The notes under the pieces are model-generated. The model was not told the origin of the DNA. It made no database searches and saw only the letters and a program-made list of their open reading frames with translations. The translations under genes were made by a program, and so were the position numbers. This document shows, piece by piece, positions 40,853 to 58,861 of a stretch of DNA of 64,000 bases. How positions within the stretch are numbered: the stretch's first letter is position 1; every line of letters starts with the position of its first letter. Source of the DNA: Spirulina sp. (GTDB taxonomy: Bacteria; Cyanobacteriota; Cyanobacteriia; Phormidesmidales; Phormidesmidaceae); NCBI GenBank assembly GCA_044070495.1, contig JBIPSI010000007.1:1-64000 (forward strand), written 5' to 3'.

Positions 40853-43800
40853 TCATTTCAAACGTTTGTCGTAAAGTCTTCCGTGGCGTTCTTTCTCAAT
40901 CATCAATCGTTGCCGCATCCTGTAATAAACTTCCTGGGCTAGTTGTTCCAAAGCCCAGGATTTGTCGGCATTATCTTTCGGTGCACGATTCTGATTTGCC
41001 TCAATGGTTGTGAACGGTGTATCCTCCTTAGCTTGAATCAGAAAACTGGGCTGAGACAAATCCGAATGAGCAGTATTTTGGGTTTGAATGGCAGGTGGAT
41101 TACGAAATTTGAGGACAGGCTTAGTACGGGAAATAGAGAGTCTTCGCTGAATTGACGTGGTTGATAATGGCGATGACGTCGTTAGGGGTATAGAAGATAC
41201 GGTTGGCGAGGTCTCTACGATTTCCTGGGATAATTTTGGCTCAGTTCTATCCCAAGTTGTTGGTTGCATTTTTGGAGAACCGTCCTGAACTTGAGATGCT
41301 ACTAAGTCTGCTAAATTTTGCCACTCTGACGGCAACACTGAGTCATTGTCATCCGCTAAACGTTGAATCATTGACGCATCCATCTGAGATGGTTGAGCCA
41401 TTTTAGATAAATCAGATTCAGATTGTTGCCTGAGCCATGACTGTTTTATAGATTCAGGATCTGTATCAGGTATTCGAGAAATTTTGTCTGTCTCAGGATG
41501 GTGGACAACGTCAGATAAATCCGCATGAGGCTGTATAGGTAGCGTTGCAATTGAAGATAACTGAATTCCAGCTATATCTAAATTATGTTGACTTTGTGCA
41601 GCATTAGTGACGACAAAAACGCCTTGATTTTGATCAGAGCTTTGGTCATATTTTAGCGGCAATTCTATCTCTATTTCTCGACGAATTGAAGTATCTTTTT
41701 CCAAGCCATTTTCAATTATTTGCTGATTAACTTCAGGCTTTCTTTGAAGCGATCTAGGTGGAGACTGAAAATCCATCAGAATGGGCAAGTTTTCATGGTC
41801 TTTAGAATTTTTTTGCAAGCCTATATCTTGTGAAGAAGCAAGGTTTTCTGGCCAAGTTGGTAATGGTTTAACGGTCCCATGGATGACTGTATGCTGATCC
41901 AAGTGCTTATTTATGTTTTGTTCTTGGGCAGCACTAGCACCTACAATCATTGGGTTTGTGGCGTTGATTGCTGACACATTACGTTCTAAGGAGTTGTCTA
42001 ATGCCAAGTCCTCCGACTTCAAGAGGCGGCTAGACGGTGACCCTAAAGCTGAATGTGTCGATTCAATGGTTGACGAAAAGCTGGAAATACCTTCACTCAA
42101 TCGCTGAATACTGTTGGCCGACGCATTTGCCGCAGAAAACAGATCCCCAGGGTTTAGTGCATTTACGGCAAATATTGATGTAGCACTGGATGGGATAGTG
42201 CGATCTCCAAAACGAGATATCGAAGTATCTTGAGTAGATGATTGTTCTTGATTAGAACTTTGGAGATTTTCATTTTCTGAAAATTCAGGATTCGTAGTTG
42301 ACAGACTTGTTAAATTATCAAAATGGCTAGCGTGTGTTCTCTGAATATTTTGGAAAGATACGTTCTGAAACTGTGGCAGCCTGTCAGCGGCAATAGAATC
42401 TACTAAAGGCGTTTTTTCTTCGGTTTCACCATCTGTTGAGAAAAAAGGATTGATCTCGTTAACTCGCTGAATTTGACTAGGAAGTACAGCTTTAGTCATC
42501 GAGATCACCATAGGATGGTGATTAACTACTTGAGCATTGACAGCGACAGTTCCTGCGTCAAAGCCTTGAACGTCAGGCGTTTGAATATTGTGGGGCTGAA
42601 CGCTCTCGAAATTGGATAGGGAGTCAGCAGAATATAGCCTAGTTGAAGATATTATATCTGGCTCAACAACATCCTTGTTTTCGCTATTTTTTTGAATGAT
42701 ATCTGGTAGCAAATCTTCGGAGTTAGGTCGGCCAGCAAGATAAGCTTGACTAGATTCTTGAACAGCTTCGGAGGAGTTATCCACAACCGTAGGCCATAAA
42801 TCAGACCTTGGGGTAGATGCCGCTGGTGAGGATATCGAACTGACTGGAGTGCTCGACTTTGTATCGCGTGATAGTTGAATAGTATTAGATGGCGTGTCGT
42901 TATATTTTGGCAGTATTTCAGGACTGAGAAAAGATGTAAGAGACGGAGATAAGTGGTCTAAAGAAAGGTTTGGATCAGGATCTCTGTGGAGTTGGATCCT
43001 CTCTAGAGAAAGAGCTTTATCACTGGAAGAGATTTGCTGACCTCGCTGAATAACAGTATGATTTTGTGAAAGTTTAGACGAGGATCCGAGATCTAGTGAG
43101 GTCAGTTCATTTTCTGATCCGATAACGCTAATTTGCTGATCAACAGGTAGCTTTATCGGGTCAGATATAATAGGTGAAAAAAAAGTAGAATATCTTTCAG
43201 GATACTTTTGAACTTTATCAAAGGTTTTTCCTTCAATACTCGACAGAAATTCAGGTGATAAATCCGCACTCAAAGTGTTAGATTTATTATCTCCAGGGTC
43301 AACATCATTTTCCTCGTTGGTCTTCTGAATCTGTTTTAGGAATGAGCCTTCAATACCAACTAAAGGTTCGGATTCTGATCCCTCAGATACTGAAATTGGT
43401 GCCGAAGATATAGAAGATAAATCTTCTGAGATGGTCGATTCCTCTCCATGGAATTTCTGAACTTTATTAAATAATGGTGATTCAGCGTTTAATGTAGGCT
43501 GACTATCTAAGGATGCGTCCTTAGATATCGTACCAGACAGGAAATCTACATGGTCTGAGGACGTATCGCCAGAATCTTTTTCGTCCTGAGATAATGTTTC
43601 TTGATGATCAGTGAAAGATTTAAATTCTGAAGATGGAGTTGCAGGGATAGATGAATTATCTATTGAGGAAAGGCCGCTTTCTCCATTAACTTTATTAATT
43701 GGATTAGGAGGTGAAATCTGAAGATTAGATACAGCCTTGGGAATGGAATGTGGTGTTGAAGATTCAGGATAGCCATCCAGAGGAGCCGTAGAGTCTTGCT

Positions 43801-46800
43801 CGACAGTTCTCTGTATTGGCTGATCGGATATGTTTCCAATATCTGTTTGAAGCTCAAATCCAAAGTCTAACTTTGAAGATGTGGATAGATTATTTATTAG
43901 GAAGTTAGTATTTTCTTCAAAAGCATTCTGAATTTGCCTGTCTGAACTTGCTTTAAGACGAGCAGGCTCTTGAAAGGTTGACGTTGTTAATTCAGCCTCA
44001 GATAGGGTATCTGCCGAAGAAGGTATATTGTCATCGGCTACTCTCTGAATTGGATAAGATACCTCCCCCTCAATATGATTTCGCAATTGAGGCTCTAGCG
44101 CTTTAGGTTCAGACACGGGAATATTATTGTTCGAGGAGATAATATCATCCTCGGCCATGCTCTGACTCTGACCCGAGGAGATATCTCTAAGATCTCTGGT
44201 TGGTTCAGCACCTAAATTGAGATCAGATACTAAATCAGATTTAGGTGCAAATTCTATATTTGTGAGAGAATGATCTGCTTGACTAGTTCTTTGAGTCTGT
44301 TCAGGGGATGTATTCTCAGGGATAATGACAGGTTTTGCATCTAAGTTTATGGTTGCAGACAAAGATTCTACGATTGTTGGGTTCGGGAAACTTTCTTCGT
44401 TAGACTCCTGAAGGTTATTGGGCGATGATAGTTCAATATCCGTTGGGGTTTCACGAGCTAAGTTGTCTGACTGATATGTAAGGTTTGTGTCCGTTGAGAA
44501 TGTTGAACTACTTTCGCTAGACTTCTGAATTTGCTCAGGTATTGATCCCTCAATAATAGGTTGTGTTTTAGTCGATAAGGTTTCTACCGTTGTCTCAGAT
44601 GCCACATTAGCTAAAAATTCGGGGTAGTTCCCCTCCATTATCGGAATAGACGGGGAGGATAGGTTTTCAGCAGCGCCTAAGGCCTGAGGTTCTAAGGCTG
44701 GGATTGTAGGTATAGGCCCTGAATCTCCTACGGATGCAGTGCTTTCCTCACGCATTGTTTGATTCTGATCGAATGACAGCGCATCAAGATTTATTGGAGG
44801 GTTATTAACAAAATTCTCTAGATTATGTGCAGAGGCTATATCTGTTGAGGATGTGGAAAGGCTTTCATTGGCTTTCTGAATCTGCTTAGGTGCTGCCTCC
44901 TCGATATCTACAGGCGTTTGAGTAAGAGGTGTTGTTGCAGAAGCAGAGACTATCTCCGTTTTTTCAACGGAGATTTCTTCACTGGCCCTTTGCAATTGAT
45001 CAGGCAATGCTTCTTTAATGTGTGGTTGTTCGCTAATAACTAGATTTGTCGTTTGGAACGCAGAATTTATATTTCCGGTAAACGTAGATCTTGCCTCATC
45101 AAATTTCTGAATCTGTTCAGGTATGAGTGTCTCGATGTCAGAATGAGTTTTGGACAATGAAGCTTCTGTAGTTAACTTAATTATGGCATTTGTCGAGGAT
45201 ATAGGATTATCCTCATTAACCTTTTGAATTGGGCTGGATGACACCTCTTCAGCAGCGGCTAGAGGTTGAGATTCTAAGGCCTTGATTTCAGGGATGGGTG
45301 CTGCATTCGTGGGTGGCATAGAGCTTGCTTCACGAATGGTCTGACTCTGCTCGAATGATGATACCTGATCAATATAGACTAGAGGTTCATCAACGAGATT
45401 CTCTGAATTATGTGTAAAGGCTAGATCTGTCGAGGATGTCAAACTATTTTCATCAGCTTTCTGAATCTGCGTAGGTACTACTTTCTCGATATCTAAGGGC
45501 ATTTTAGGCGGTAGATAGGCTGTCGTTGAAGTAGAGGCTGTATCTATTGAGGGTACAGACTCTATATCCCTTGCAGGCACAGAATTTTCCTCACCAGTCC
45601 TCTGCACCTGTCCAGGCAGTGTACTTTGGGCACGAGTCGAAATCTCCGTATCTAAGGATGCGTCTACCAAGGGAGATGCTGTATCGGTGGAGGCAATAGC
45701 ATCGACCTCGATCTCTTGTTGTGGTTGCCCTAGCAAAAAAGATTCAGTATTTTGAGACGTTGCGGTTTTAAGTAGTTGTATCGTAGGCGTGGATAAGGAC
45801 TCTGCTGACAATGTTGAGCCTTCTTCCCTATCTCTCTGGATCGACACAGCCGATGGATCTTCAATATCTATTGAAGATGTAGATGTTAAGACATCTGCTG
45901 CGGAAGAAGAGGTTTTCTCTGTGGAGATGCGAGTATTTCTTTCGCTATGATCCTGGGATTCTTGATAGGATAGTTGCTCTCTCTCAGAGACGTTTTCAGG
46001 ATCTGGCGATTTTTGCGTAGAGGATGATGGGCCGTCTGCAATCAATTCAGCACGACTCTCACTGGATCTTTGAATCTTTTGAGAGACTGAATCACTAGCT
46101 CTCAATGAAATTTCAGGAAATGCCGGATTCTGCGCAGAGAATGGTGTGCCCTCTGACAGCAAAAGACTACTTCTTTTAATAGAGCCTTGACTAAGGTCAG
46201 GAGCCAAGTTTTTAGGGGCCAAGTCTTCGCTCCTGATTAAAGCTTCATCGTTAACGGATTCTATATCCAAGTCTGATGCGTTGACGACAGAAGCCGTTGG
46301 GTTGCTTTCGCTAGCCCTTTGAATAGGCGTAATTTCTGCTAGCACTGTTTCAGGAAAATCGGTAGAGATTGGGGAATTTTCTATATGTTCTAGCCCCATC
46401 TCCGTGGGGAAAGCAGCACTGCTCTCAGTGACACCATGGGAATGTTGTGGGGCTGAAGGTTCTGATTGGATTAGATTAGGCTTAAATAGAATTTCTGATC
46501 GTTGTAAATCGGCATGGATAAATGGTTCAGCTTCTGTTGTTTCCGGTAATAAGTTTGTCACCTCGGCCATGCCACTATCCATCATTTGCTGGGGCTGAAG
46601 TGGCGCAGGCGGTGTAGAGAAATCGACGATGACAGGCAAATTTTCGTGACTTGGCGGAGTATGGGCTGGCATCCCCGGCGTGGGGCTAATTCTAGTTGTC
46701 GGTTGGGATGTGGAAGCCTCTGTTGGAGTAACATTCTTGGCCTGAATAGCCTGGGCAGATGTAACGGTATTTTCAGTAAAGAGATTACGAGAAATTTGAG

Positions 46801-48028
46801 GTTGATTCGCTGTTGATGTATGACTGCCTGAAACTGATGTATGTCTCTCTTCAGTATTTGGAGAAGATTCTAGATTTTGCCCTTCCTTCGGACTGTGGGA
46901 AATATTACCCTGGACATCTTCATTCACCTTGACGTTCGGTCGCTTTACTCCGAGGACGTTATTCTCCTGGTCGCTACTCTCTGGAGAAGAGAGTCTTTGA
47001 ACAGAGAAATTGTCAGGGTTCGATTTAAGAGTGCTCAAATCAGAAAATATGGGCTTAGATTCTACGACAATGGCTTGCTTGTCAACCGAATCCTGAGAGT
47101 CTAACATGGAATTAGGCAGGGATTTTCCTGACCGCAACTCCTGGGATAATACGCCGTTCTCGACAATATTAGCCTGACTGTCTAGCGCTGATTGGATCGC
47201 ATTGCTATCCGGAATAATAGCTTGTGAAAAAGTGCGATTATCTAGGTCAAAAGATGTATTTAAATTGGCAGAAGAAGGCCACGTGTTTTCTGGAATGACG
47301 CGATCTTCTGCACTATTTCTTTGGATTATGTTATTGTCGGAGGTGTTTATTGCTTTGGGCAGACTGCTACCTGATGTAGAACTTCCCAGGAAAGTACGTT
47401 CCTGAGAAATTTCCCCCTCGGGAAATATGGTTTTAGATGTTGTCTCCTCTAAATTAATGTTGAGGGAAAGCTTGTGATTTTGAATAATCTCATCGTCAGG
47501 ATTTATCGCAGCCTTAGGTTGGATAGGTGCCGACGCAGGAGCGTCTATCTCAGGGCGCTTTTGGATAACTAACGGTTCAGAGGTTAAGACAACTTTAGGG
47601 GCAAGGTTTTCTGTCCTAATATCCTCTGAAAAGATATTACTTGGGGGCGATAAATTCTTAGGATTTGAGGTAAAAATAGAGGGTTTATGTTCTGAAGTAC
47701 TATCCTCTGACAAGGATTGTGTTTGAATCGGATAAGGCTTAACGTTAGAGAGATGACTTTGAGGTGACGTGCTCGCCGTTGGGGAAAATCCTTGATGAAA
47801 AAGTGGATCTGAGACAGATGATGATGCAAATTCAGTATTCTCTGGAGAGAATTGTCTGTGAAGCTGAGCAGCCTCGCTAGGTGAAGTAACTTCTTCTTCA
47901 ATGGGGTCAATGTCGGGCAAGCCAGCGGGGAAAAAATAGGCTAGATTTAACACCCCCAAGGAATGTGCCCCTAGGGGCTGGTGGTGTCCTAGGGGTTGGT
48001 TTGCAGAGACCAGGAGAGAATCGACCAT
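40853..48028 (-). CDS. Giant 2391-aa low-complexity CIS-associated protein with IQR/IQK repeats
   Basis: 7.2-kb uninterrupted ORF, rich in S/T/E/P, many (I/V/L)Q(R/K) motifs, C-terminal helix LEQLAQEVYYRMRQRLMIEKERHG. Confidence 0.85.
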   Translation of the reverse strand: MVDSLLVSANQPLGHHQPLGAHSLGVLNLAYFFPAGLPDIDPIEEEVTSPSEAAQLHRQFSPENTEFASSSVSDPLFHQGFSPTASTSPQSHLSNVKPYPIQTQSLSEDSTSEHKPSIFTSNPKNLSPPSNIFSEDIRTENLAPKVVLTSEPLVIQKRPEIDAPASAPIQPKAAINPDDEIIQNHKLSLNINLEETTSKTIFPEGEISQERTFLGSSTSGSSLPKAINTSDNNIIQRNSAEDRVIPENTWPSSANLNTSFDLDNRTFSQAIIPDSNAIQSALDSQANIVENGVLSQELRSGKSLPNSMLDSQDSVDKQAIVVESKPIFSDLSTLKSNPDNFSVQRLSSPESSDQENNVLGVKRPNVKVNEDVQGNISHSPKEGQNLESSPNTEERHTSVSGSHTSTANQPQISRNLFTENTVTSAQAIQAKNVTPTEASTSQPTTRISPTPGMPAHTPPSHENLPVIVDFSTPPAPLQPQQMMDSGMAEVTNLLPETTEAEPFIHADLQRSEILFKPNLIQSEPSAPQHSHGVTESSAAFPTEMGLEHIENSPISTDFPETVLAEITPIQRASESNPTASVVNASDLDIESVNDEALIRSEDLAPKNLAPDLSQGSIKRSSLLLSEGTPFSAQNPAFPEISLRASDSVSQKIQRSSESRAELIADGPSSSTQKSPDPENVSEREQLSYQESQDHSERNTRISTEKTSSSAADVLTSTSSIDIEDPSAVSIQRDREEGSTLSAESLSTPTIQLLKTATSQNTESFLLGQPQQEIEVDAIASTDTASPLVDASLDTEISTRAQSTLPGQVQRTGEENSVPARDIESVPSIDTASTSTTAYLPPKMPLDIEKVVPTQIQKADENSLTSSTDLAFTHNSENLVDEPLVYIDQVSSFEQSQTIREASSMPPTNAAPIPEIKALESQPLAAAEEVSSSPIQKVNEDNPISSTNAIIKLTTEASLSKTHSDIETLIPEQIQKFDEARSTFTGNINSAFQTTNLVISEQPHIKEALPDQLQRASEEISVEKTEIVSASATTPLTQTPVDIEEAAPKQIQKANESLSTSSTDIASAHNLENFVNNPPINLDALSFDQNQTMREESTASVGDSGPIPTIPALEPQALGAAENLSSPSIPIMEGNYPEFLANVASETTVETLSTKTQPIIEGSIPEQIQKSSESSSTFSTDTNLTYQSDNLARETPTDIELSSPNNLQESNEESFPNPTIVESLSATINLDAKPVIIPENTSPEQTQRTSQADHSLTNIEFAPKSDLVSDLNLGAEPTRDLRDISSGQSQSMAEDDIISSNNNIPVSEPKALEPQLRNHIEGEVSYPIQRVADDNIPSSADTLSEAELTTSTFQEPARLKASSDRQIQNAFEENTNFLINNLSTSSKLDFGFELQTDIGNISDQPIQRTVEQDSTAPLDGYPESSTPHSIPKAVSNLQISPPNPINKVNGESGLSSIDNSSIPATPSSEFKSFTDHQETLSQDEKDSGDTSSDHVDFLSGTISKDASLDSQPTLNAESPLFNKVQKFHGEESTISEDLSSISSAPISVSEGSESEPLVGIEGSFLKQIQKTNEENDVDPGDNKSNTLSADLSPEFLSSIEGKTFDKVQKYPERYSTFFSPIISDPIKLPVDQQISVIGSENELTSLDLGSSSKLSQNHTVIQRGQQISSSDKALSLERIQLHRDPDPNLSLDHLSPSLTSFLSPEILPKYNDTPSNTIQLSRDTKSSTPVSSISSPAASTPRSDLWPTVVDNSSEAVQESSQAYLAGRPNSEDLLPDIIQKNSENKDVVEPDIISSTRLYSADSLSNFESVQPHNIQTPDVQGFDAGTVAVNAQVVNHHPMVISMTKAVLPSQIQRVNEINPFFSTDGETEEKTPLVDSIAADRLPQFQNVSFQNIQRTHASHFDNLTSLSTTNPEFSENENLQSSNQEQSSTQDTSISRFGDRTIPSSATSIFAVNALNPGDLFSAANASANSIQRLSEGISSFSSTIESTHSALGSPSSRLLKSEDLALDNSLERNVSAINATNPMIVGASAAQEQNINKHLDQHTVIHGTVKPLPTWPENLASSQDIGLQKNSKDHENLPILMDFQSPPRSLQRKPEVNQQIIENGLEKDTSIRREIEIELPLKYDQSSDQNQGVFVVTNAAQSQHNLDIAGIQLSSIATLPIQPHADLSDVVHHPETDKISRIPDTDPESIKQSWLRQQSESDLSKMAQPSQMDASMIQRLADDNDSVLPSEWQNLADLVASQVQDGSPKMQPTTWDRTEPKLSQEIVETSPTVSSIPLTTSSPLSTTSIQRRLSISRTKPVLKFRNPPAIQTQNTAHSDLSQPSFLIQAKEDTPFTTIEANQNRAPKDNADKSWALEQLAQEVYYRMRQRLMIEKERHGRLYDKRLK

Positions 48029-48135: not shown

Positions 48136-48693
48136 TTAATGACTAGAGAAGTAACCTGAGGAATCGCGTCGTAGATCGGTGGATGCGCCGCCACTACTTC
48201 CTTTAAAGACAACTTTTAATCCCTCATAGGCAAGGGTAAGTTCTTCGAGGGCTACAGTAGAGGAATCAGCCTGAAGGGTAGGGGCTTTCCAGCTCGTAGG
48301 AATAGCTCCAATCAGAGTCCAACACTGCATTGTTTCCCCGGATTGATTGAACACTAAAATATTGATATTGCGACGATAACTAGAAGGCGCAGTACTTCCA
48401 GATTGTTGGGCGAGAAGAGGAGAAATCCAGTTCCAGAACACGGGATCATCGCTTAGGCCACGTCGTAGTGTAACATCCGAGAATTCTGCTGGCCCCAACA
48501 GAATTCGTTGTTGTTCGTTTACGCCTCCTTCCATTAACGTTTCTTTTTTAATTTGGACACCTAGGCCGCTACACTCACTAAAGGAGGCCGTAATCTGGCT
48601 CTCTATTTCGACATAAAAATGGTTGGCCGTGACATAGTTTAGGCCAAAGGTATCGGCTCCATTTTTTGTGTTTTGGGAAGTGGTAGAGGGCAT
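48136..48693 (-). CDS. Phage tail tube protein (T4 gp19 family, Afp5-like)
   Basis: FYVEIE, FSECSGL, EGGVN, VTLRRG, W.L.GA.P..WKAP and LEELTLAYEG. Confidence 0.9.
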   Translation of the reverse strand: MPSTTSQNTKNGADTFGLNYVTANHFYVEIESQITASFSECSGLGVQIKKETLMEGGVNEQQRILLGPAEFSDVTLRRGLSDDPVFWNWISPLLAQQSGSTAPSSYRRNINILVFNQSGETMQCWTLIGAIPTSWKAPTLQADSSTVALEELTLAYEGLKVVFKGSSGGASTDLRRDSSGYFSSH

Positions 48694-48776: not shown

Positions 48777-49019
48777 TTAGCGAGATTGTTGACGGGAGAG
48801 GTCTTGTTTGAGGAGGGCATAGACCCGGTCGCAGAGGTGCTGGAGGGCAATGGGGTCATTGAGGAGTTCGGCGGCGATCTGACCGATGGCAGCGAGGTCT
48901 TTGTTCGTGAGGGTGTCGGAGGGGGAGATGGGGGAACCTATGGGGGCGGATCCCTGGGTTGGTTCAGGAACCGCTGGGAATTGACTGGTGAGGGCTGTGG
49001 GATCGTAATGGTTAGGCAT
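48777..49019 (-). CDS. Small CIS-associated protein
   Basis: 80-aa ATG ORF in operon position; C-terminal helix LQHLCDRVYALLKQDL. Confidence 0.7.
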   Translation of the reverse strand: MPNHYDPTALTSQFPAVPEPTQGSAPIGSPISPSDTLTNKDLAAIGQIAAELLNDPIALQHLCDRVYALLKQDLSRQQSR

Positions 49020-49077: not shown

Positions 49078-49221
49078 TCATTGGGTGAGGTCGTTAATTT
49101 GGTCGATCCAGCGGTTGCGGTCTCGGTGTTCTAGGCTCAAAATTTCCTCCAGCGTCCAGTGAACCTGCATGGATAAAAAGGCTACCTCCGCTTGCAGGTC
49201 GGCGGCGGGGTAGCTTACCAT
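49078..49221 (-). CDS. DUF6760-like 47-aa ORF, missing from the ORF track; probable -1 frameshift extension of the upstream chaperone
   Basis: MVSYPAADLQAEVAFLSMQVHWTLEEILSLEHRDRNRWIDQINDLTQ; HW...EIL.L....R..W pattern of gpGT/gpE'-type tail chaperone extensions. Confidence 0.8.
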   Translation of the reverse strand: MVSYPAADLQAEVAFLSMQVHWTLEEILSLEHRDRNRWIDQINDLTQ

Positions 49222-49592
49222 TCCCCCGCCAGGGCAAGTTCCAGATTAAAAGCGTGCTGGCATTGGGGGCATTGGGCAGGAATATGGGCCTCGCCAGACT
49301 GGTTGATGCGGTTGTAGAACTCGCGCAGGTAAGACAAATCTACGGTAAATAGTTCTTCGAGCACCGTGGGCGTCAGGGTGACAAGATCGCCGAGCCGGAT
49401 GATCACCTGGGAAAGCATGACTAAATCTCCATAGCCCGGTTGAGCCTGGGCTTGGCGGTTGCGCGACACGGTGAGTTCGTCGCGGGCGGTGGCAAGGCGC
49501 ATGATCCCTTCCCGACGCAATACGCCATCGGATCCCATGAGACCACGGGGGAGTTCAAAGGGGAATTCGGTGGGGGGGAGGGGGAAGGACAT
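49215..49592 (-). CDS. CIS tail assembly chaperone-like protein
   Basis: FELPRG...DG.LRREG.MRLATARDE, LF..DL.YL..FY.RIN, CPQC, ends LAGEW. Confidence 0.8.
   Translation of the reverse strand: MSFPLPPTEFPFELPRGLMGSDGVLRREGIMRLATARDELTVSRNRQAQAQPGYGDLVMLSQVIIRLGDLVTLTPTVLEELFTVDLSYLREFYNRINQSGEAHIPAQCPQCQHAFNLELALAGEW
49221..49227 (-). other. Candidate -1 ribosomal frameshift slippery site G GGG GAA
   Basis: Minus strand reads GCG GGG GAA TGG TAA; the -1 frame continues GGA ATG GTA AGC into the 47-aa ORF. Confidence 0.7.
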
Positions 49593-49801: not shown

Positions 49802-50260
49802 TTAGGGGGTGAGGTCGTTGATGTGGCGGTAGAAACGCTGTAGGTAGTCGAGGTCGCAGGCGAACAGGTCTTCTATCACCAGGGGCGAGACTTCGGAGAG
49901 GGTGCCGAGGCGGGTGATGACTCGCGACAGAATGAGTACCGTGGCGTAGGCGGGATTGGCCCGCACCCTAGGATCGCGCATGGGCACAATTTCGTCCATG
50001 GCCTTGGCCAGGCGCATCACCCCCCGCCGATGCCAGTTTCCGGCACTGTCTAGGTAGCCCTTGGGCAGTTCAAAAACATACTCTAGCTGAACCGATCCAG
50101 GTGGTGGCGCAGCGGTCGCGTCCATGACCGGATGGCTCGCTGCCGGATTACCCGACCCCAAATCCCCAGATACCGCAGACCCCGACGCAACCGAGGGCTG
50201 GGCCGGGGCAGACTTGACCACGGGGGGCAAGTTCAGGTTGTTGCTCATTTGCATGGCCAT
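49802..50260 (-). CDS. Second CIS chaperone-like paralog
   Basis: FELPKGYLD..G.WHRRG.MRLA.A.DE...MRDPRV..NPAY and LF.CDL.YLQ.FY..IN; lacks the CxxC and GE tail. Confidence 0.8.
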   Translation of the reverse strand: MAMQMSNNLNLPPVVKSAPAQPSVASGSAVSGDLGSGNPAASHPVMDATAAPPPGSVQLEYVFELPKGYLDSAGNWHRRGVMRLAKAMDEIVPMRDPRVRANPAYATVLILSRVITRLGTLSEVSPLVIEDLFACDLDYLQRFYRHINDLTP

Positions 50261-50309: not shown

Positions 50310-50807
50310 TTAGGTGGGTTTGACTTCGGAGCGTTTGAGGGATTCTACGACAATTTCCATTTCTTCGATGTTAAAGTCGCCACTCTTAACATCTAGATCT
50401 GAGATTTTGTAGCGCATGGGCCAGGCCCGTTCAAAGGTGAACCGAAATTGTTCTTCTCCCGCTTGGTTGTAGATGACTAGGGATCCATCTCGTCGTTGGT
50501 CGGCCCATTGACCAGATTGCACCTTATCCAGCCAGTTCCAAAGGGTCATGGAAGTCGTGAGTCCTCGCCGCAGAGTGACGTTCGTATAGGTGGAATTGCC
50601 CGGCAGTTTAGTACGAACAACTCTTCCCTTAGTGTCGCCATTTTTGCCCCAAAGTTGGGGCGTAACTTCGCTAATTTCGATCACATCTTGGGACGCCTGA
50701 AAGCCACTGCAATCCATAAAAATTCCATCCACGCTGTCGATGCTACCATCGAGCTTAATCTCTAGGTAGAACCGAGCACTGGTGAGAAGTTCTGGAAAGT
50801 TTGGCAT
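50310..50807 (-). CDS. Phage tail tube protein (gp19 family)
   Basis: RFYLEI, FMDCSG, KLPG...YTNVTLRRG, RRDGS, AWP.RY and IEEMEI. Confidence 0.9.
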   Translation of the reverse strand: MPNFPELLTSARFYLEIKLDGSIDSVDGIFMDCSGFQASQDVIEISEVTPQLWGKNGDTKGRVVRTKLPGNSTYTNVTLRRGLTTSMTLWNWLDKVQSGQWADQRRDGSLVIYNQAGEEQFRFTFERAWPMRYKISDLDVKSGDFNIEEMEIVVESLKRSEVKPT

Positions 50808-50819
50808 AACTTAAGTTCC

Positions 50820-51302
50820 CTATACCTTACGAATGACTTGGGTAAAGTAGAGCTCAAGCGTATCTTCTGCTAGCTGACCAGCACTATCTACCGATAGAGA
50901 GCCGATTTGGGTTTTATTGCCAGGAAATAGGTCAATGAAATTGAACCGCATGGCTTCTTTCCCGTCTGGATCATAAATGACTAACGATCCATTTTTTCGA
51001 TTTTTAGTGGCTTCAGATCCGCCTCCAGAGAAGGCGTCAGGGTGACACTTGTCGTACCATTCGTACAACTTCTGCTGATCGGCCTCATTACCACCCACGT
51101 AGGTGAGCGTGATTCGTGAGTCGTACTCTACGCCGCCAATTGTGGATTGGGTTTGGGTTACAGCATCCTTAGAGGAGCCAATGGCAGCATCTCCTCCAGC
51201 CACCTTGAGGGTGATTGAAGGGCCAGTCACCTTTTTCACAAACAAACTCGTGACACTATCAATTTCAAAGTAGAACCGCGAACTGGTTAAGTATTGAACC
51301 AT
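50820..51302 (-). CDS. Divergent tail tube protein (gp19-like)
   Basis: SRFYFEID, LYEWY, RKNGSLVIYDPDGKEAMRFNF..LFP. Confidence 0.8.
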   Translation of the reverse strand: MVQYLTSSRFYFEIDSVTSLFVKKVTGPSITLKVAGGDAAIGSSKDAVTQTQSTIGGVEYDSRITLTYVGGNEADQQKLYEWYDKCHPDAFSGGGSEATKNRKNGSLVIYDPDGKEAMRFNFIDLFPGNKTQIGSLSVDSAGQLAEDTLELYFTQVIRKV

Positions 51303-51428: not shown

Positions 51429-51926
51429 CTATTTCTTCCGGTTGAATTTTTCGCAGGTAATGGTATAGGTTTCCTCGATGTAACTGTCGGTGGTGACATC
51501 TAGATCGGCACATTTATATTTAGAAGGCCAAGCCGTGAGAAAATCCCATCGAGCAATTTCCTTGCCGTCGGTGTCGTAGGCGGTGATGCTGCCTTCCTTA
51601 ATGTTGTCGCGCCACTTGCTGTTGCCACCGTTGGAACCTGGCAGGCATTCCTGAAACCACTTGTACATCTTGACGCTGGTGCTGGATGCATCACCACTGG
51701 CAATGCAAACACAATCAAAGCTAAACAAGCCTTCATGGCCTGCGGCGTTTACCTGCCAAACGGTTTTGCCACCTTTGGTTGTGCCGATGGCCTGTTGGCC
51801 ACCCTGAATCTTGGGTTGGTAATTGGGAAGACTAACACTCTTGAAAATGGATTCTTCCCCTTCTACAATTCCCTTAATTTCCAAGTAAAAACTACTTGGG
51901 GCAATGGGTTTATTCAGTTCTGCCAT
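51429..51926 (-). CDS. Divergent tail tube protein (gp19-like)
   Basis: FYLEI, MYKWF, GSITAYDTDGKEIARWDF..AWPSKY and IEETYTITCE. Confidence 0.85.
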   Translation of the reverse strand: MAELNKPIAPSSFYLEIKGIVEGEESIFKSVSLPNYQPKIQGGQQAIGTTKGGKTVWQVNAAGHEGLFSFDCVCIASGDASSTSVKMYKWFQECLPGSNGGNSKWRDNIKEGSITAYDTDGKEIARWDFLTAWPSKYKCADLDVTTDSYIEETYTITCEKFNRKK

Positions 51927-52118: not shown

Positions 52119-53828
52119 TTACTGGTTCGGTGCCCACTGGCTGATGCGGAAGATGACAAATTCCGCCGGACGGACGGGACAAACGCCGACTTCCACGTAG
52201 AGGCGGCCTAGCATCATGGTTTCGTGGGTGTTGAGTTCGCCGTCGCATTTCACGTAGAAGGCTTCGGCGGGGGAAGCGCCAAATAGGGCACCTTCGCGCC
52301 AGAGCCGTTCTAGGAAGTTGCTGACGGTGCGGCTCACCCTAGCCCAGAGGTCTTGGTCGTTGGGTTCAAACACTACCCACTGGGTGCCGATTTCGATGGA
52401 TTTTTCGATGTAGCTGAGCAAGCGCCGCACGCTGATGTAGCGCCACTGCACGTTGTCGGGTTCCACTAGGGTGCGGGCACCCCAAACTTTTAGGCCGCGT
52501 TGGTAGTTGGCAAAGTTGCGGATGCAGTTGATGCCCATGGGGTTGAGCAATTCCTGCTCGCGCATGTTGGTTTCGTAGGAGAGGCCGATGACGCCGCGTG
52601 GGGTTTCGTTGGCGGGGGCCTTAAAGACGCCACGGGATTCGTCGGTGCGGCACCAAATGCCCATCATGTGGCCGCAGGGGGGCACCATAATCGGGCGTCC
52701 GGCGTTGCGGGGGTTGGCCACTTTAATCCAGGGATAGTACAGCGCCCCAAACATGGATCGGCGGTTGAACAGGCTGAGCCACTGGGCCACATCCTGGGGT
52801 TTTTGCTGCTCTGGGGCCACCGGATCCATGCTCTTACCGGGTTTGACCGGGGGCGCATCTAGCACGGCCATGCGGTAGGCGGGGCCGGGGAAGGAGTTTT
52901 CGCACATGCTGAGCATGGATTCCATCACCCCATGCACCTGATCCATATCCATCAGGCCGTTTTGGTAGACCCGCATCAGGTCGGGGAAGGCCACCATGGC
53001 GGCTTCGTCCACCTCAAACATGCCCTGCATCCCGGTGCGGTCGTCCCGTTGGCCCTGGATGTCGCGGGAGAGGCGGCCTTCGGGGGAAATGTAGGGGGGC
53101 GGTGCCACTTCATAGATCCCATTGGCAGGGCGGCGGGAGAGAGCTTGCCCAGACACCGAAATATCCGTCAGGGTGACGTACTCCGAGTCGGCCAGGGCGG
53201 TGACGACGTAATCGGCCACCTCGGCTTCCGGCTCTGGGTTCATGGTCAGGTTGGGATAGCGCTCCAGTTCTTCGCCGTTTTGGGTAACGATGACGGTGAA
53301 AAACTCCCCGGTGTTGAGGGGCGGTTCGGCGTCTTCATCGGCGTCTTCGCCCAGGGGTTTGGGTTCGCCATCGGTAATCACCACCCGCACTCGGCTACCA
53401 CCGGAGGGGGGCAGGGCGGGGGTATCGCTGGCCTCGGCGGCTTGCAGGTTAAACCGCAGGGCGGGCTTGCCGCTGGAGGTCATCAGCTTGTGACCTGTAT
53501 CCTCTGGGGGGGGCACCGGGGAACCGGGCAGGCGGGTGCCAATGCTCGTGACCCAACAGCGACCGCCGCCATTCATAAACCAGCCGTTCACCGCAAAGGG
53601 GAGGTAGGCGTCAAAATCCGTAAAGCCATCGGAACCGGGTTTGGCAAAGGCTTCCAAATACTGGTTCCAGTTGGTCACCAGCATGGGTTTGAAGAGTTCG
53701 GCATCGCCCCGCACATCTTCGGTAAAGCCGATAAAGCCGCCCACGCTGAGGCTAACCCCATCAATGGGGCGACTACCGCGATCCACCTCTTCGACGTATA
53801 CACCGGGAGCAAAATAATCTAGGGCCAT
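52119..53828 (-). CDS. Contractile tail sheath protein (gp18/Afp2-4 family)
   Basis: YFAPGVYVEE, FMNGG.RCW, ALYYPW, VPPCGH, RGVFKAPAN, LNP.GINCIR, VWGARTL, WRYISVRR, VFEPND and PVRPAEFVIFRI. Confidence 0.96.
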   Translation of the reverse strand: MALDYFAPGVYVEEVDRGSRPIDGVSLSVGGFIGFTEDVRGDAELFKPMLVTNWNQYLEAFAKPGSDGFTDFDAYLPFAVNGWFMNGGGRCWVTSIGTRLPGSPVPPPEDTGHKLMTSSGKPALRFNLQAAEASDTPALPPSGGSRVRVVITDGEPKPLGEDADEDAEPPLNTGEFFTVIVTQNGEELERYPNLTMNPEPEAEVADYVVTALADSEYVTLTDISVSGQALSRRPANGIYEVAPPPYISPEGRLSRDIQGQRDDRTGMQGMFEVDEAAMVAFPDLMRVYQNGLMDMDQVHGVMESMLSMCENSFPGPAYRMAVLDAPPVKPGKSMDPVAPEQQKPQDVAQWLSLFNRRSMFGALYYPWIKVANPRNAGRPIMVPPCGHMMGIWCRTDESRGVFKAPANETPRGVIGLSYETNMREQELLNPMGINCIRNFANYQRGLKVWGARTLVEPDNVQWRYISVRRLLSYIEKSIEIGTQWVVFEPNDQDLWARVSRTVSNFLERLWREGALFGASPAEAFYVKCDGELNTHETMMLGRLYVEVGVCPVRPAEFVIFRISQWAPNQ

Positions 53829-53913: not shown

Positions 53914-54474
53914 TCAAGGCGGCGCATGGGGGAGCGGCAACTCATTCACCCCCATCCGATCCCCGAAGGGAATTTCAAAGGGAGCGGTCACCGAGATTTG
54001 CAGGGCTGGACGCAGGGGGATACCCAGGGTGATCCAGAAGGCGGGTTGGGTGACCAGGGTAATCGGCGTGACCCGCAGGGGCAGGGCTGGATATCGCCGC
54101 AGCGATGGCGACAGAAATCGATGGGGAATGTGGGGCGATTGCAGCAGCAGGCTGAGGCTTTCCGACAACAAGGCTTGCTCCCCGAGGGCGGTGTGGTCGC
54201 AGGCCATCAAGGCAAACACCACGTTGAACCAAATCGGCTGCGATCCGACCCCCAACGCTGGGTCGTGGTTCAGACTGGCCCCAGCGCTGGACGGGACATA
54301 GGGCTGCGGATAAGGACTTTGGGCCGACTGAATTTCGTAGTGGTACAGGTGCAGACAGGGCTTGCTCGAATCGGCGACTTGCCCCGGATAGCCAAAGTCA
54401 ATCTGCTCGGTGCCCGTAAGGGTGGGGCCGGATGCCAGTAGGTTCGCTACCGCCTGGGCAATCGCAGAGATCAT
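53914..54474 (-). CDS. Pvc16/DUF4255 CIS tail terminator (cap) protein
   Basis: IDF.YP, LHLYHYEI, EQALLSE.L..LL and FW..LG.PLRPAL.ISVT.P. Confidence 0.8.
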   Translation of the reverse strand: MISAIAQAVANLLASGPTLTGTEQIDFGYPGQVADSSKPCLHLYHYEIQSAQSPYPQPYVPSSAGASLNHDPALGVGSQPIWFNVVFALMACDHTALGEQALLSESLSLLLQSPHIPHRFLSPSLRRYPALPLRVTPITLVTQPAFWITLGIPLRPALQISVTAPFEIPFGDRMGVNELPLPHAPP

Positions 54475-55532: not shown

Positions 55533-56753
55533 TTGGAAATTGAACCTATGCTGACGTCAGTGGCTCCACCTTTGTCCCAGGTCGTTCACCGAGAGGATCT
55601 GAATCGGTGGAAGGTGGGCTGGGAAGCCTGTGGTTCGGTGTGTCAGTTGCAAGTCCTGCGGCTAGTGCAGCAGGGCTTGGCGGCGGCAGGGTGGATTATC
55701 TATGACGGGGGTGAGGGCCAATCGGGGTCGCCTAGGGGGCGGGTGGTGGCGGCGGCGGGGGCAACGGCGGCGGTGCCCCATGCACTGTCCTTAACCTCAG
55801 AAACCGCCTTGCAGCGTTTCGCCCACCAAGCTAGGGAGGTGCAGCCGGGGGTGGGGGGCTTCTACCATCGCCTGTCTAGCCCCCAGGGAGGGTGGGTCTA
55901 CGGGCTACGGTTTCCGCTGTCTTCGGGTAGCAGCGAGGCCTATCTACTGCTGTGGCGTCCTGGGGAGGCTGGCCTAGAGAATCACAATGGCTCCATGGTT
56001 GATGCTTCTCCCCTGGAACGGGAGGGGCTAGACCTGGCATTGGAGGTCGCGGCTTTACAGACGGCGATCCGCCTAGATCAAGACCATCGACGGCAACGGC
56101 AACGGGTGGATCGCTATCAAAATATTCTGCGTTGTCTGGAGCATCAACTGCGCCATCCCCTGGCTATGATTCACCTCTATGCGGCGAATCTGCAAAACAG
56201 CTTGACCCAGGATCGGGATCGTCAGCAGGCCCAAACCATCCGCGAGGCCGTCGGGCATCTCAATGACCATCTGACGGATCTGATTGCCGGGTGTCAGCGA
56301 TCCCAGATGCAGGCGGAGGTCTGTTCCATCCCCGACCTGTGGGCAGAGGCGTGGCAGGGTTTGCGTCTTGTGGCCCAAGAGAAAGCGGTCAACTTAGTGC
56401 TGGCGGATCGCCCCCTCACCCTTTGGGGAGATCAATCTCAACTGGTGCAAGCCTTTACCAATCTGCTCCACAATGCCCTCTGCTTTAGCCCACCCCAGGG
56501 CCAAATTTCCGCCCAGTGGCAGGTCTATCACCAGGAGGTCGTGATCACCCTCGCCGATCAGGGGCCGGGGCTTTCCCCCACGGATCTTCAGCATCTCTTT
56601 CGGCCCTACTATTCCAACCGCCCCCAGGGCAGCGGCATTGGCCTCACCGTAGCCCGCCAAATTGTGCAGCAGCACGGCGGCAAACTCTGGGCCGAGAACC
56701 TACCCCAGGGCGGCGCACAGTTTTCGATGGTGTTGCCCTTGGCCCCCTCCTAG
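55533..56753 (+). CDS. Sensor histidine kinase (no clear TM segment)
   Basis: H-box EHQLRHPL, N-box NLLHNA, DQGPG, F-box LFRPY, GSGIGL, HGG; start may be the ATG at 55548. Confidence 0.9.
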   Translation: MEIEPMLTSVAPPLSQVVHREDLNRWKVGWEACGSVCQLQVLRLVQQGLAAAGWIIYDGGEGQSGSPRGRVVAAAGATAAVPHALSLTSETALQRFAHQAREVQPGVGGFYHRLSSPQGGWVYGLRFPLSSGSSEAYLLLWRPGEAGLENHNGSMVDASPLEREGLDLALEVAALQTAIRLDQDHRRQRQRVDRYQNILRCLEHQLRHPLAMIHLYAANLQNSLTQDRDRQQAQTIREAVGHLNDHLTDLIAGCQRSQMQAEVCSIPDLWAEAWQGLRLVAQEKAVNLVLADRPLTLWGDQSQLVQAFTNLLHNALCFSPPQGQISAQWQVYHQEVVITLADQGPGLSPTDLQHLFRPYYSNRPQGSGIGLTVARQIVQQHGGKLWAENLPQGGAQFSMVLPLAPS

Positions 56754-56832
56754 GTGGGCTTGTCTCCCCCAGGGGAAAGGGGACGTGGGACGGTGACCGT
56801 TGGGGCCTTCGGTTGGATGATTAGGCTCGGTA

Positions 56833-56878
56833 CAGGTTTGGGTAACAGGTTTGGGTGACGGGTTTGGGTGACGGGTTT
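56833..56878. repeat. 13-bp tandem repeat x3 between kinase and regulator genes
   Basis: CAGGTTTGGGTAA, CAGGTTTGGGTGA, CGGGTTTGGGTGA, then CGGGTTT. Confidence 0.75.
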
Positions 56879-56918
56879 TTGGATGATTGGGTCGTTTGGT
56901 CGTTGCTTCCGATGGTTT

Positions 56919-57590
56919 ATGGATACCCCCATTTCGCTGCTGTTGGTGGATGATTCCCAGCCCTTCCGCCAGGGCATTCGCACGCTGCTGGAGTTCTACA
57001 ACACCAGCACATCGCCGCCGCTGACGGTGGTGGGGGAGGCGGTAACCGAGGCCCAAGCCCTCAAACTCGCCCAAACCCAACGCCCCAACCTAATGCTGCT
57101 GGATATGGAACTGGCCCAAGGCGATGGTTTAGCCGTGCTGAGCCATTTGCGAGAGATGACCCACCCACCCAAGGTATTGGTGTTGTCGGTGCATCGGGAG
57201 GACGAATGGGTGTTTCGGGCCATGCAGGCCGGAGCCCAGGGCTATGTTTGCAAAGACCGAGTCGCCGACCAACTAGTGGACGCCATCGCCACGGTGCTGC
57301 GGGATGAGGTCTATCTATCGCCGCAACTTGCCGCGAGCTTTTTTCGATTGTTTCGGTTCTATGGCGGCCAAACCCGCCCCTGCAACCACACCGTCCACCT
57401 CACAGATCGCGAACAGGAAGTCCTGCACTGGCTGGTGCAGGGAGCTTCTAACGATGCCATTGCCCGCCATCTCCATGTCACGGTGGCCACGGTGAAGGCC
57501 CACCTCACCGGCATTTTTGAAAAACTCAACGTCACCAGCCGCACCCAAGCCATCGTCAAAGCCCTCAAACTCGGACTAGTCTCCGCATGA
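56919..57590 (+). CDS. NarL/LuxR-family response regulator
   Basis: LLVDD, LLDMEL, GAQGYVCK receiver domain; LTDREQEVL...SNDAIA.HL.VT.ATVKAH HTH. Confidence 0.95.
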   Translation: MDTPISLLLVDDSQPFRQGIRTLLEFYNTSTSPPLTVVGEAVTEAQALKLAQTQRPNLMLLDMELAQGDGLAVLSHLREMTHPPKVLVLSVHREDEWVFRAMQAGAQGYVCKDRVADQLVDAIATVLRDEVYLSPQLAASFFRLFRFYGGQTRPCNHTVHLTDREQEVLHWLVQGASNDAIARHLHVTVATVKAHLTGIFEKLNVTSRTQAIVKALKLGLVSA

Positions 57591-58861
57591 GCAACCATCT
57601 CGCCATCGCCACCGTCACCGCCGTGCTCCAGCGCACCCTCCAGGCCAACGTGCAGCGCCATGTGGAATCGGTGCGGATTTCCACCGTGGCCCCCCACCGC
57701 ATCGGCCAGGGCACCCCCGAAACCGGCATCAACCTGTTTCTGTACTACGTCAGCCGCAACAACGCCCTGAAAAACCCCGATGCCCTAGCCCAACGCGCCC
57801 GCAACAAACGCACCCCCTGGCGGCAGGCCGCCCTCGAACTCCACTACATGCTCAGCTTCTACGGCAACGAGGCCGAACTCGAACCCCAGCGGTTGATGGG
57901 CAGCGTGGTGCGCACCTTCAACGACCGCACCCTCCTCCCCGCCGAGCTCATCCAAGACACCCTCAACGACTCCACCTTTAGCTACCTCGATCAGTCCGAC
58001 CTCGGCCAGCAAGTCCAGGAAATCCAAATCACCCCAGAGGACTTGACCCTGGAGGACTTGTCGAAGGTGTGGTCGGTCTTTTTTCAAACCCCCTACGCCC
58101 TCTCCATTGCCTATAAAGTCATGGCCGTGGTGATCGATGGCGAAGACCCCGCCGAACGAGCCCTGCGGGTGCGGGAACGGCCCATCCAGGGCATTGCCCC
58201 CTTCCCCAGTCGGCCCCAGGTGAACCGCATCCTGGCCCAGGAGGGGCCAAACCACCCCATTCTGCCTACCACCTGCCTCCAGATTCAGGGCCATCACCTG
58301 AAGGGAACCCAAACCCAAGTGCGCCTAGGCGGTCAGGACATCGTCCCCCAAGACCTCACAGACGATCAGCTTCACCTGCCCCTTACCACCGTACCCACCC
58401 TACGAGCGGGCATCCAAAGTTTGCAGGTCGTCCACCGCCAAACCCACTCCCTGAGCCGCTTAGACGACCATGCCCCCACCCTGCGGATTAGCTCCAATCC
58501 GGCCCCCTTCACCCTCAGCCCGGTGCTGCAATCCGTCCAGGTCAGCGAGGTGACCGACCACGATGGCGACACCTGCGCCGCCCGCCTCACCCTCACCGTT
58601 ACCCCCACCGTGGGGGCCAGCCAAGGGGTGATGCTCTCCCTCTACGAATGGTCTACCCAGCAGCCCGCCAGCTACCTGATCGAAGTGCCCCCCCGCAGCG
58701 AAGACAGCGACCAAATCACCGTCGCCGTCCAAGGCATCCAAACGGGCACCTACCTGGTGCGCCTCATCGTAGACGGAGCCGAAAGCCCCCTCGACATCGA
58801 CGAAGACCCCACCAGCCCCACCTACCAGTGGTACGCCCAACCTCGGGTGCAAATTACCTAG
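57587..58861 (+). CDS. Long Pvc16/DUF4255 protein with C-terminal Ig-like (IPT/TIG-like) extension
   Basis: MSNHLAIATVT, INLFLY.V..N, LELHYMLSFYG, LSKVWS.FFQTPY.LS.AY; beta-rich C-terminal half; ATGA overlap with the regulator gene. Confidence 0.85.
   Translation: MSNHLAIATVTAVLQRTLQANVQRHVESVRISTVAPHRIGQGTPETGINLFLYYVSRNNALKNPDALAQRARNKRTPWRQAALELHYMLSFYGNEAELEPQRLMGSVVRTFNDRTLLPAELIQDTLNDSTFSYLDQSDLGQQVQEIQITPEDLTLEDLSKVWSVFFQTPYALSIAYKVMAVVIDGEDPAERALRVRERPIQGIAPFPSRPQVNRILAQEGPNHPILPTTCLQIQGHHLKGTQTQVRLGGQDIVPQDLTDDQLHLPLTTVPTLRAGIQSLQVVHRQTHSLSRLDDHAPTLRISSNPAPFTLSPVLQSVQVSEVTDHDGDTCAARLTLTVTPTVGASQGVMLSLYEWSTQQPASYLIEVPPRSEDSDQITVAVQGIQTGTYLVRLIVDGAESPLDIDEDPTSPTYQWYAQPRVQIT

Follow-up and report, generated by a model that had tools for sequence, protein, structure and literature searches.

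Long-tailed phages make their tail assembly chaperone in two forms, a short one and a frameshift-extended one, as in gpG/gpGT of lambda, E/E+E' of P2 and gp41/FS-gp41 of Mu. For T4-like phages a different arrangement has reportedly been put forward: Vladimirov, Gautam and Davidson are said to have proposed in 2022 (Virology 566:9) that "baseplate hub assembly" proteins of the gp26/gp51 type are the T4-like tail chaperones, and the title of that work suggests a non-frameshift route. The tail chaperone genes of actinobacteriophages slip at GGGGGAA, the "five-two" site, according to passages on the SEA-PHAGES data in the PRFect paper (PMC10885494). Among extracellular contractile injection systems (eCIS), members of lineage II as a rule lack homologues of the tape measure afp14 but carry two or three additional conserved genes specific to the lineage, according to Chen et al. 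(2019, PMC6899500). The present analysis concerns a contractile injection system (CIS) tail module in a cyanobacterium, Spirulina sp. (GenBank assembly GCA_044070495.1). The window, that is, the whole stretch of DNA analysed, comprises 64,000 nucleotides (contig JBIPSI010000007.1, positions 1 to 64,000), and its minus strand carries an open reading frame (ORF) resembling tail assembly chaperones (ORF1) whose end overlaps a second frame (ORF2) belonging to the DUF6760 family. Judged from the sequence and its conservation among relatives, the overlap very probably holds a programmed -1 ribosomal frameshift of the lambda G/GT type.

ORF1 (49215..49592, minus strand) encodes 125 aa in the 0 frame, from an ATG at 49592 to the stop TAA at 49217-49215. 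On the minus strand its 3' end reads GCG (49229-27) GGG (49226-24) GAA (49223-21) TGG TAA, and the C-terminal part of the protein has the form CPxC...F.[VL]EL, followed by the slip site. The slippery heptamer, G GGG GAA (49221..49227, minus strand), was assigned by its register and by codon conservation among relatives. The 0 frame reads it as GGG-Gly and GAA-Glu; a -1 slip would place the tRNAs on GGG and GGA. A 6-nt spacer (49215..49220, minus strand), made up of the final bases of TGG and the TAA that stops the 0 frame, leads from the heptamer to a predicted hairpin. The DUF6760 frame (49078..49221, minus strand) runs in the -1 register as GGG GGA ATG GTA AGC TAC CCC and so on to a TGA at 49080-49078; its ATG (49221-49219) overlaps the end of ORF1 and begins 47 codons, and base 49221 would be read twice at the slip. 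Pfam PF20546 (DUF6760) matches the 47-codon peptide at 34.1 bits (curated cut-off 27; E 2.9e-8), with residues 6-45 aligned to profile positions 7-46 of 89. The predicted products are thus a short form of 125 aa and a long form of 124 + 47 = 171 aa. The 3' end of ORF1, the heptamer coordinates, the 47-codon peptide and both product sizes had been given in a first-pass annotation of this DNA, and all proved correct when the window was read again. Just before the slip site, ORF1 residues about 108-117 (49242-49271, minus strand) form a nearly invariant segment, CPxC...F.[VL]E[LV], that contains only two cysteines; in the AlphaFold model this CPxC segment appears, at low confidence, as two short strands.

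The arrangement is shared by relatives. A protein-based search with ORF1 gave 80 cyanobacterial loci (L001-L080), or 81 with the window. In 81/81, the frame with DUF6760 homology is -1 to that of the ORF1 homologue, and in 81/81 the string CGGGGGA keeps one and the same register (0 frame, xCG GGG GAR; -1 frame, GGG GGA). The -1 frame opens from 213 down to only 6 nt before the first G, and the 0-frame stop follows this G at 7 nt in 11 loci, at 10 nt in 59 and at 22 nt in 11. Therefore, the G run is the sole stretch where a change of frame is possible in all cyanobacterial loci. Over all sets of loci, including those from other phyla introduced below, the latest opening lies 3-6 nt before the first G and the earliest 0-frame stop 7 nt after it. 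Downstream of the G run the cyanobacterial loci are collinear, with no indels.

Codon choice at the site is equally constrained. The slip-site glycine codon is GGG in every cyanobacterial locus, against 6, 20 and 7 of 81 for the three other invariant glycine columns of ORF1, which otherwise use all four codons. The preceding codon is always NCG, though GCG is the least used alanine codon elsewhere in ORF1. From the slip-site glycines onward the -1 peptide is conserved (GG-[IV]-x-[GS]-Y-P), and the 0-frame tail past the slip site varies among relatives in both length and sequence. The G-run site is more than chance. The first-pass annotation had inferred that this injection system keeps the phage recoding mechanism, and it had proposed comparing orthologues at the DNA level for a fixed glycine codon and G run, for a constant -1 overlap, and for persistence of that overlap even where a start codon is missing. 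Each of these comparisons turned out favourable to a conserved recoding mechanism, as far as sequences can speak to it: GGG is found in 81/81 loci in an invariant register, the -1 overlap is present in 81/81 cyanobacterial loci and in 77/80 loci from other phyla, and it holds in 87/158 loci that have no ATG, GTG or TTG in the relevant stretch.

A further element lies downstream. The predicted frameshift-stimulating hairpin (49181..49214, minus strand) has 10 bp and one bulged A, with the 5' arm GCUACCCCGC at 49214-49205, a 13-nt loop at 49204-49192 and the 3' arm GCGG-A-GGUAGC at 49191-49181. Folding of the downstream 44 nt gives -18.4 kcal/mol (z -2.55), a value that 3/200 shuffles match. A 60-nt fold including the slip site, in which the G run pairs with CCCC (z -1.09), was dropped as the relevant fold because a ribosome on the slip site covers those bases. 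Throughout the cyanobacterial alignment, GCUACCCC stands 6 nt past the heptamer and is followed, after a loop of about 13 nt, by GAGG-A-GGUAGC, its reverse complement with a bulged A. With few exceptions among the loci, the distance from the first G to the start of the 5' arm is 13 nt.

The helix was evaluated in two alignments, one of 75 distinct cyanobacterial sequences (A2) and one of 67 distinct sequences (A4) from a second set of 80 loci (L081-L160), fetched with an alignment of DUF6760 matches that looked high in G+C. RNAalifold on the 75 sequences of A2 returns the helix of the structure named above. In A2, 96.5% of the cells paired in an 11-bp version of this structure can pair, versus 31-62% with the 3' partner displaced by 1-3 columns, and the covariation score is 0.124 versus 0.075 in shuffled alignments (reached by 0/500 shuffles). 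The corresponding values in A4 are 91.5% versus 31-57% in the slid controls and 0.148 versus 0.081, again reached by 0/500 shuffles. Compensatory arms are seen as GCCACC/GGUGGC (L128), GCUACU/AGUAGC (L097) and GCUAUC/GAUAGC (L033), and the window and its two closest relatives have CCGC/GCGG, as opposed to CCUC/GAGG elsewhere. The closing pair is G-C in 28, C-G in 16 and A-U in 9 cases of the second set; thus, the first base of a Gly/Arg/Ser codon and, 35 nt further on, the synonymous third position of an Ala codon change together. The valine codon in the 3' arm is GTA in 74/75 rows of A2 and 62/67 rows of A4; in the rest of the chaperone genes GTA accounts for 22% of valine codons at low-G+C loci and 6% at high-G+C loci, a background drawn from 249 cassettes of which up to 120 were pattern-selected. 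The predicted hairpin and its covariation are support for the frameshift that the earlier annotation had not foreseen. Taken together, the heptamer, the 6-nt spacer and the hairpin make a textbook cassette.

How would such a cassette work? Most ribosomes would stop two codons past the G run and release the 125-aa tail assembly chaperone. A fraction would pause at the hairpin while GGG occupies the P site and GAA the A site; both tRNAs would then move back by one base, to GGG and GGA, with a G:U pair at the middle position of the Glu anticodon. Reading on in the -1 frame through the 47 DUF6760 codons, these ribosomes would make a chaperone of 171 aa that is extended at its C-terminus. If lambda G/GT is a guide, the short form would coat a tape-measure-like protein and the extension would dock it to tube subunits during assembly. 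A complex prediction of the DUF6760 extension with the tube protein encoded at 50310-50807 scored 0.00, which is uninformative on binding either way.

On the evidence of PHROG 508 and the fold searches, ORF1 is a phage-type tail assembly chaperone, as had been supposed from the sequence alone. It matches PHROG 508 ("tail assembly chaperone") with E 1.5e-5, and so do 54/56 of its aligned relatives (best E 5.8e-11). The AlphaFold model of ORF1 (pLDDT 83.2, pTM 0.72) finds T4-like "baseplate hub assembly" proteins as its fold matches in BFVD (E 1.4e-7 to 4.2e-5), with the Mu frameshift product FS-gp41 at rank 10 (E 7e-3, probability 1.0); in a fold search of the PDB, the HK97 tail assembly chaperone 2OB9 accounts for the two top matches, which are weak (E 0.098, probability 0.93). 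ORF1 has no match in Pfam, neither ORF1 nor ORF2 has one in NCBIfam, the chaperone profile has none in a sequence search of the PDB, and tblastn of ORF1 against 50,697 phage records finds no relative. DUF6760 likewise has no match among the named phage families; its only counterpart is phrog_10636 (function not known), matched by 16/52 members.

An indication of what DUF6760 does comes from five proteins of 140-159 aa (P0018, P0026, P0059, P0119 and P0126) in which the chaperone profile (E 3e-11 to 4e-35) is followed in frame by the DUF6760 profile (E 2e-19 to 8e-27), without the CPxC-and-slip segment. Chaperone and DUF6760 therefore work as one polypeptide. Two further candidates for in-frame fusions, P0013 and P0122, were dropped, as comparison with L081 places a switch of frame inside them. 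The proposal that the DUF6760-like ORF would be the frameshift extension is thus supported by the -1 register, by the startless loci and by the in-frame fusions.

The cassette extends well beyond cyanobacteria. A profile of the -1 frame peptides retrieves 493 proteins at E <= 1e-3. The second set of loci covers, by record titles, Alpha-, Beta- and Deltaproteobacteria, Acidobacteriota, Chloroflexota, Gemmatimonadota, Actinomycetota (Streptomyces, Nonomuraea, Rugosimonospora and Streptosporangium) and a second cyanobacterial type. In 77/80 of these loci, DUF6760 lies in the -1 frame, the junction has a run of 5-8 G and the 5' arm of the hairpin follows downstream, and the same arrangement was confirmed by hand in L139; the chaperone-like ORF ends as CPxC...F.VEL..G[GE] plus 0-12 codons, also in 77/80. 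Four heptamers are seen, GGGGGAA, GGGGGAG, GGGGGGA and GGGGGGG. The last two fit the X XXY YYZ rule; with GGGGGAA and GGGGGAG, the middle position of the Glu codon has to form a G:U pair. The loci that carry the cassette span 38-73% G+C.

An exact pattern with 19 specified bases, GGGGG-N8-GCTACC-N20-GAGGTAGC, is present in 147/163 loci, 160 of these 163 being protein-selected. It occurs once in the genome of the window and in 32/401 genomes sampled from the same phylum, the reversed pattern occurring in none. A scan with one genome per species found at least 120 stretches. Among the 120 matches listed, the -1 frame fits the DUF6760 profile in 120/120 and the 0 frame fits the chaperone profile in 118/120, the remaining two having truncated or short upstream frames; selected by the pattern itself, these loci are uninformative on how often it is absent and circular for the G run. 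Further taxa among the matches listed are Myxococcota, Bacillota (Paenibacillus), Nitrospirota, Brocadiaceae, Fimbriimonadaceae and Aminicenantes, as well as Lysobacter, Methylococcales, Caballeronia and Undibacterium. Three contigs from archaeal bins are also among them (L171, L181 and L208; Hydrothermarchaeota, ANME-2 and Methanosarcinales), each combining DUF6760 in the -1 frame with a 0 frame that resembles the chaperone, though the bins may be misassigned. Eight IMG/VR contigs filed as viral (L285-L292) carry the cassette as well; they could be phages or injection-system loci.

On balance, we lean towards regarding the cassette as an ancient recoding signal common to both prokaryotic domains: a single element of ~47 nt (G run, 6-nt spacer and GCUACC...GGUAGC hairpin), present in more than 10 bacterial phyla and, to go by the three archaeal-bin contigs, in archaea, and kept in the tail-chaperone gene of a large CIS clade. 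This would mean that it functions on very different ribosomes and ranks among the -1 signals of cellular chromosomes that are most widespread and most conserved in sequence. It would also reveal an assembly module thought absent from lineage II: a chaperone, its extended form and a tape-measure protein yet to be recognised. Both forms of the chaperone would be needed for the right tube length.

Several points weigh against a programmed slip. First, we infer the slipping, its rate and the 171-aa product from sequence. Second, part of the conservation of the hairpin arms acts at the protein level, because they encode Tyr-Pro and Glu-Glu-Val-Ala; the synonymous positions of the arms are nevertheless fixed in their pairing state. 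Third, the scan loci carry the selection bias just described. Fourth, three loci of the second set are exceptions (L090, L099 and L159), reading both parts in one frame or irregularly. L090 and L099 keep the G run and a strong hairpin and differ by an apparent single base, and L159 has four G's and inconsistent frames; all three may be real variants or indel errors. Fifth, no tape measure gene was recognised downstream of the chaperone pair, either in the window or in the sampled loci. Finally, G runs of 7-8 in some phyla could allow slippage by RNA polymerase, the window has an ATG of its own straight after the slip site, and start codons become frequent once the rare ones of translation table 11 (ATT, ATC, ATA and CTG) are counted: 102/158 loci then have a start at -6..+12 and only 17/158 have none up to +12, so that separate initiation may contribute weakly in some species. 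One of the exceptions, L099, had been considered as an in-frame locus with a decayed hairpin. Folding ruled this out, revealing a G6 run and a different hairpin of 12-13 bp; L099 keeps both elements, so it is not a natural control.

It is conceivable that the change of frame arises in the transcript, with RNA polymerase stuttering on the G run and adding one G to some messages, from which ordinary translation would give the long form. The shift site is a homopolymer of 5-8 G, and one added base leads to the same -1 frame. Five G's are short, however, as known bacterial transcriptional slippage takes ~7-9 or more A or T. A hairpin 6 nt past the heptamer in a fixed codon register is a hallmark of ribosomal frameshifting and has no part in polymerase stuttering, and the restriction of the last two bases of the heptamer to AA, AG, GA and GG fits re-pairing of tRNAs. 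Stuttering as the source of the long form is therefore judged very unlikely.

Alternatively, DUF6760 could be a separate small gene with its own start, translated by coupling or re-initiation after ORF1, as databases assume. Public records list the second frame as "DUF6760 family protein" or "hypothetical protein" entries of 47-50 aa, and the ATG of the window (49221-49219), which overlaps the end of ORF1, had led the first-pass annotation to name translational coupling as its caveat. This start is not conserved. Between the opening of the -1 frame and +36, 44/81 cyanobacterial loci have no ATG, GTG or TTG, and only 9/81, the window among them, have one within -6..+12. Overall, 87/158 loci have no such codon from the opening to +12, 20/158 have one at -6..+12, and the position varies where a start is present. 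The ATG in the window exists because GAA is followed by TGG, and the many loci without a start of this kind make it incidental. Moreover, the G run lies 0-1 nt from such starts, too close for a Shine-Dalgarno site, and a separate gene leaves unexplained the frozen GGG, the covarying hairpin, the two glycines conserved upstream of any start and the in-frame fusions. Weighing the 20/158 loci with a common start and the 102/158 with any of the seven table-11 starts against the 17/158 with none of the seven, we regard a free-standing DUF6760 gene as most improbable. The NCBI entry P0001 begins M-G-G-I-L-G-Y-P, at a point where the near-identical Nostoc loci L035 and L058 read ATC GGG GGA; L033 differs from these two in a few residues. 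This suggests that the annotation of P0001 was forced onto an unlikely, rare ATC start inside the slip site.

That there is no recoding at all, the DUF6760 frame being an untranslated relic or chance frame conserved through overlapping or neighbouring coding sequence, is almost certainly wrong: the frame has only 47 codons, but just 7-43 nt of it overlap ORF1 (the 0-frame stop lying 7, 10, 22 or 43 nt past the first G), the remainder is free of overlap with any gene, and the peptide is conserved in 493 relatives and across phyla, constitutes a curated Pfam family and occurs in five in-frame fusions to the chaperone.

The genes around the putative frameshift site, all on the minus strand, are those of an injection system. 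Upstream lie a Pvc16_N cap gene (53914-54474; Pfam), a sheath gene (52119-53828; Pfam Phage_sheath_1 and Phage_sheath_1C), three gp19-type tube genes (51429-51926, 50820-51302 and 50310-50807; Pfam Phage_T4_gp19) and a tandem paralogue of ORF1 encoding 152 aa (49802-50260), which matches PHROG 508 at E 1.8e-3 and has neither a CPxC tail nor a G run nor an extension. A homologue of this paralogue precedes ORF1 in at least 66/80 cyanobacterial loci, and the two tandem chaperone genes recall gp26 and gp51 of T4. Downstream of DUF6760 follow an 80-aa ORF (48777-49019), a fourth gp19-type tube-like gene (48136-48693; Pfam), a 2391-aa low-complexity protein at the tape-measure position (40853-48028; no Pfam match) and a CIS_tube protein (40396-40842; Pfam). 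The 2391-aa protein is rich in Ser, Thr, Pro and Gln and has many repeats ending in IQR, IQK or VQK; by gene order only, it is a candidate for the tape-measure role. The end motif of the 80-aa ORF, V-Y-x-L-L-K-Q-D-L...R, resembles the C-terminus of the 2391-aa protein, V-Y-Y-R-M-R-Q-R-L...R (40853-41152), and also the end of the long fused frame of L090. The motif may be a shared docking or packaging tag.

Gene order is similar in other phyla. All of 12 loci sampled there contain a sheath gene, a gp19 tube gene, the chaperone-like ORF (no Pfam match) and DUF6760 in the -1 frame; next in line is an unknown protein or else a second gp19 tube. In three of the loci whose sequence extends far enough, a CIS_tube protein lies further downstream, in one case with a LysM domain. 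The tape-measure position is taken in other phyla by a protein of about 400-480 aa without a Pfam match. There are no baseplate genes in the window, and no capsid or DNA-packaging genes in the parts of it scanned with Pfam. Baseplate_J and gp25 genes are found on other contigs of the same genome (C3 at 112-114 kb, C30 at 48-50 kb and C40 at 29 kb); therefore, the injection system is apparently split over at least two loci, or there are several systems with one frameshift cassette. Beside the tail module, a divergent group on the plus strand (55533-58861) encodes a histidine kinase, a LuxR-type response regulator and a second, longer Pvc16_N protein (424 aa). GerE-type regulators are mentioned beside eCIS operons in parts of Geller (2021, PMC8213781).

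With these results DUF6760 gains a meaning, as the probable frameshift extension of a tail chaperone, and its public annotation as a free-standing gene of 47-50 aa, sometimes with forced starts, would be wrong. A phage-type chaperone pair in injection systems also makes the unknown proteins next to it candidates for the missing tape measure. To our knowledge, few bacterial chromosomal genes use -1 frameshifting; a cassette found across many phyla and from 38 to 73% G+C, with a hairpin kept nearly base for base, is therefore a useful natural system for studying slippage on G runs and G:U re-pairing. There is a practical side as well: engineers of protein delivery would need both products, and recoding or codon-optimising the gene would silently destroy the signal.

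The literature, as far as our searches reach, holds no description of such recoding in eCIS, in keeping with the remark made when the site was first noted. A term search found neither "frameshift" nor tail assembly chaperone in the main texts on the tCIS of Anabaena (PMC8894136), on Streptomyces (PMC10066040 and PMC10020575) and on a hot-spring system (2026, PMC12998442), or in those of Geller (2021, PMC8213781) and Chen et al. (2019, PMC6899500). In PMC13222765 the terms "frameshift" and "tail assembly chaperone" turned up only inside a cited reference, and PMC10269795, which also combines these terms with contractile injection systems, deals with Bordetella avium phages to judge by its title. 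Papers combining contractile injection system with frameshift contain nothing on such recoding in their titles and the beginnings of their abstracts, those combining contractile injection with ribosomal frameshift are phage-tail reviews and a protein nanocage review, and "DUF6760" was not found in the literature searched. The mechanism proposed here is thus of a known kind, lambda G/GT; what is new is the CIS setting and the unusual conservation at the nucleotide level, unannotated and undescribed within the reach of these searches.

Compared with lambda G/GT, P2 and Mu, the locus has the same two overlapping frames directly after a tube gene, the same role of the upstream protein as tail assembly chaperone, and the same predicted -1 slip a few codons before the 0-frame stop, adding about 50 residues. 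Unlike those phage systems, the host is a bacterial, and apparently also archaeal, chromosomal injection machine known from its genes; the extension is DUF6760, and a tube-like gene stands between the chaperone and the presumed tape measure. We know of no G/GT site whose stimulatory hairpin is conserved almost base for base across phyla. The heptamer and the proposed G:U re-pairing of tRNA-Glu on GGA are identical to those of the actinobacteriophage "five-two" sites, and the use of GGGGGAA by actinobacteriophage chaperone genes, which the first-pass annotation had invoked, is borne out by passages of the PRFect paper (PMC10885494). In contrast to the actinobacteriophage sites, the last two bases here can also be AG, GA or GG, and the hosts range over 38-73% G+C instead of being only high in G+C. 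The likeness to T4 gp26/gp51 lies in the best BFVD folds of ORF1 and in the two tandem paralogues of the cyanobacterial loci; unlike T4-like phages, to go by the title cited at the outset, these loci have a frameshift cassette in addition to the duplicate gene. With eCIS and CIS of lineage II, finally, the module shares the Pvc16_N cap, the sheath, the gp19-type tubes and CIS_tube.

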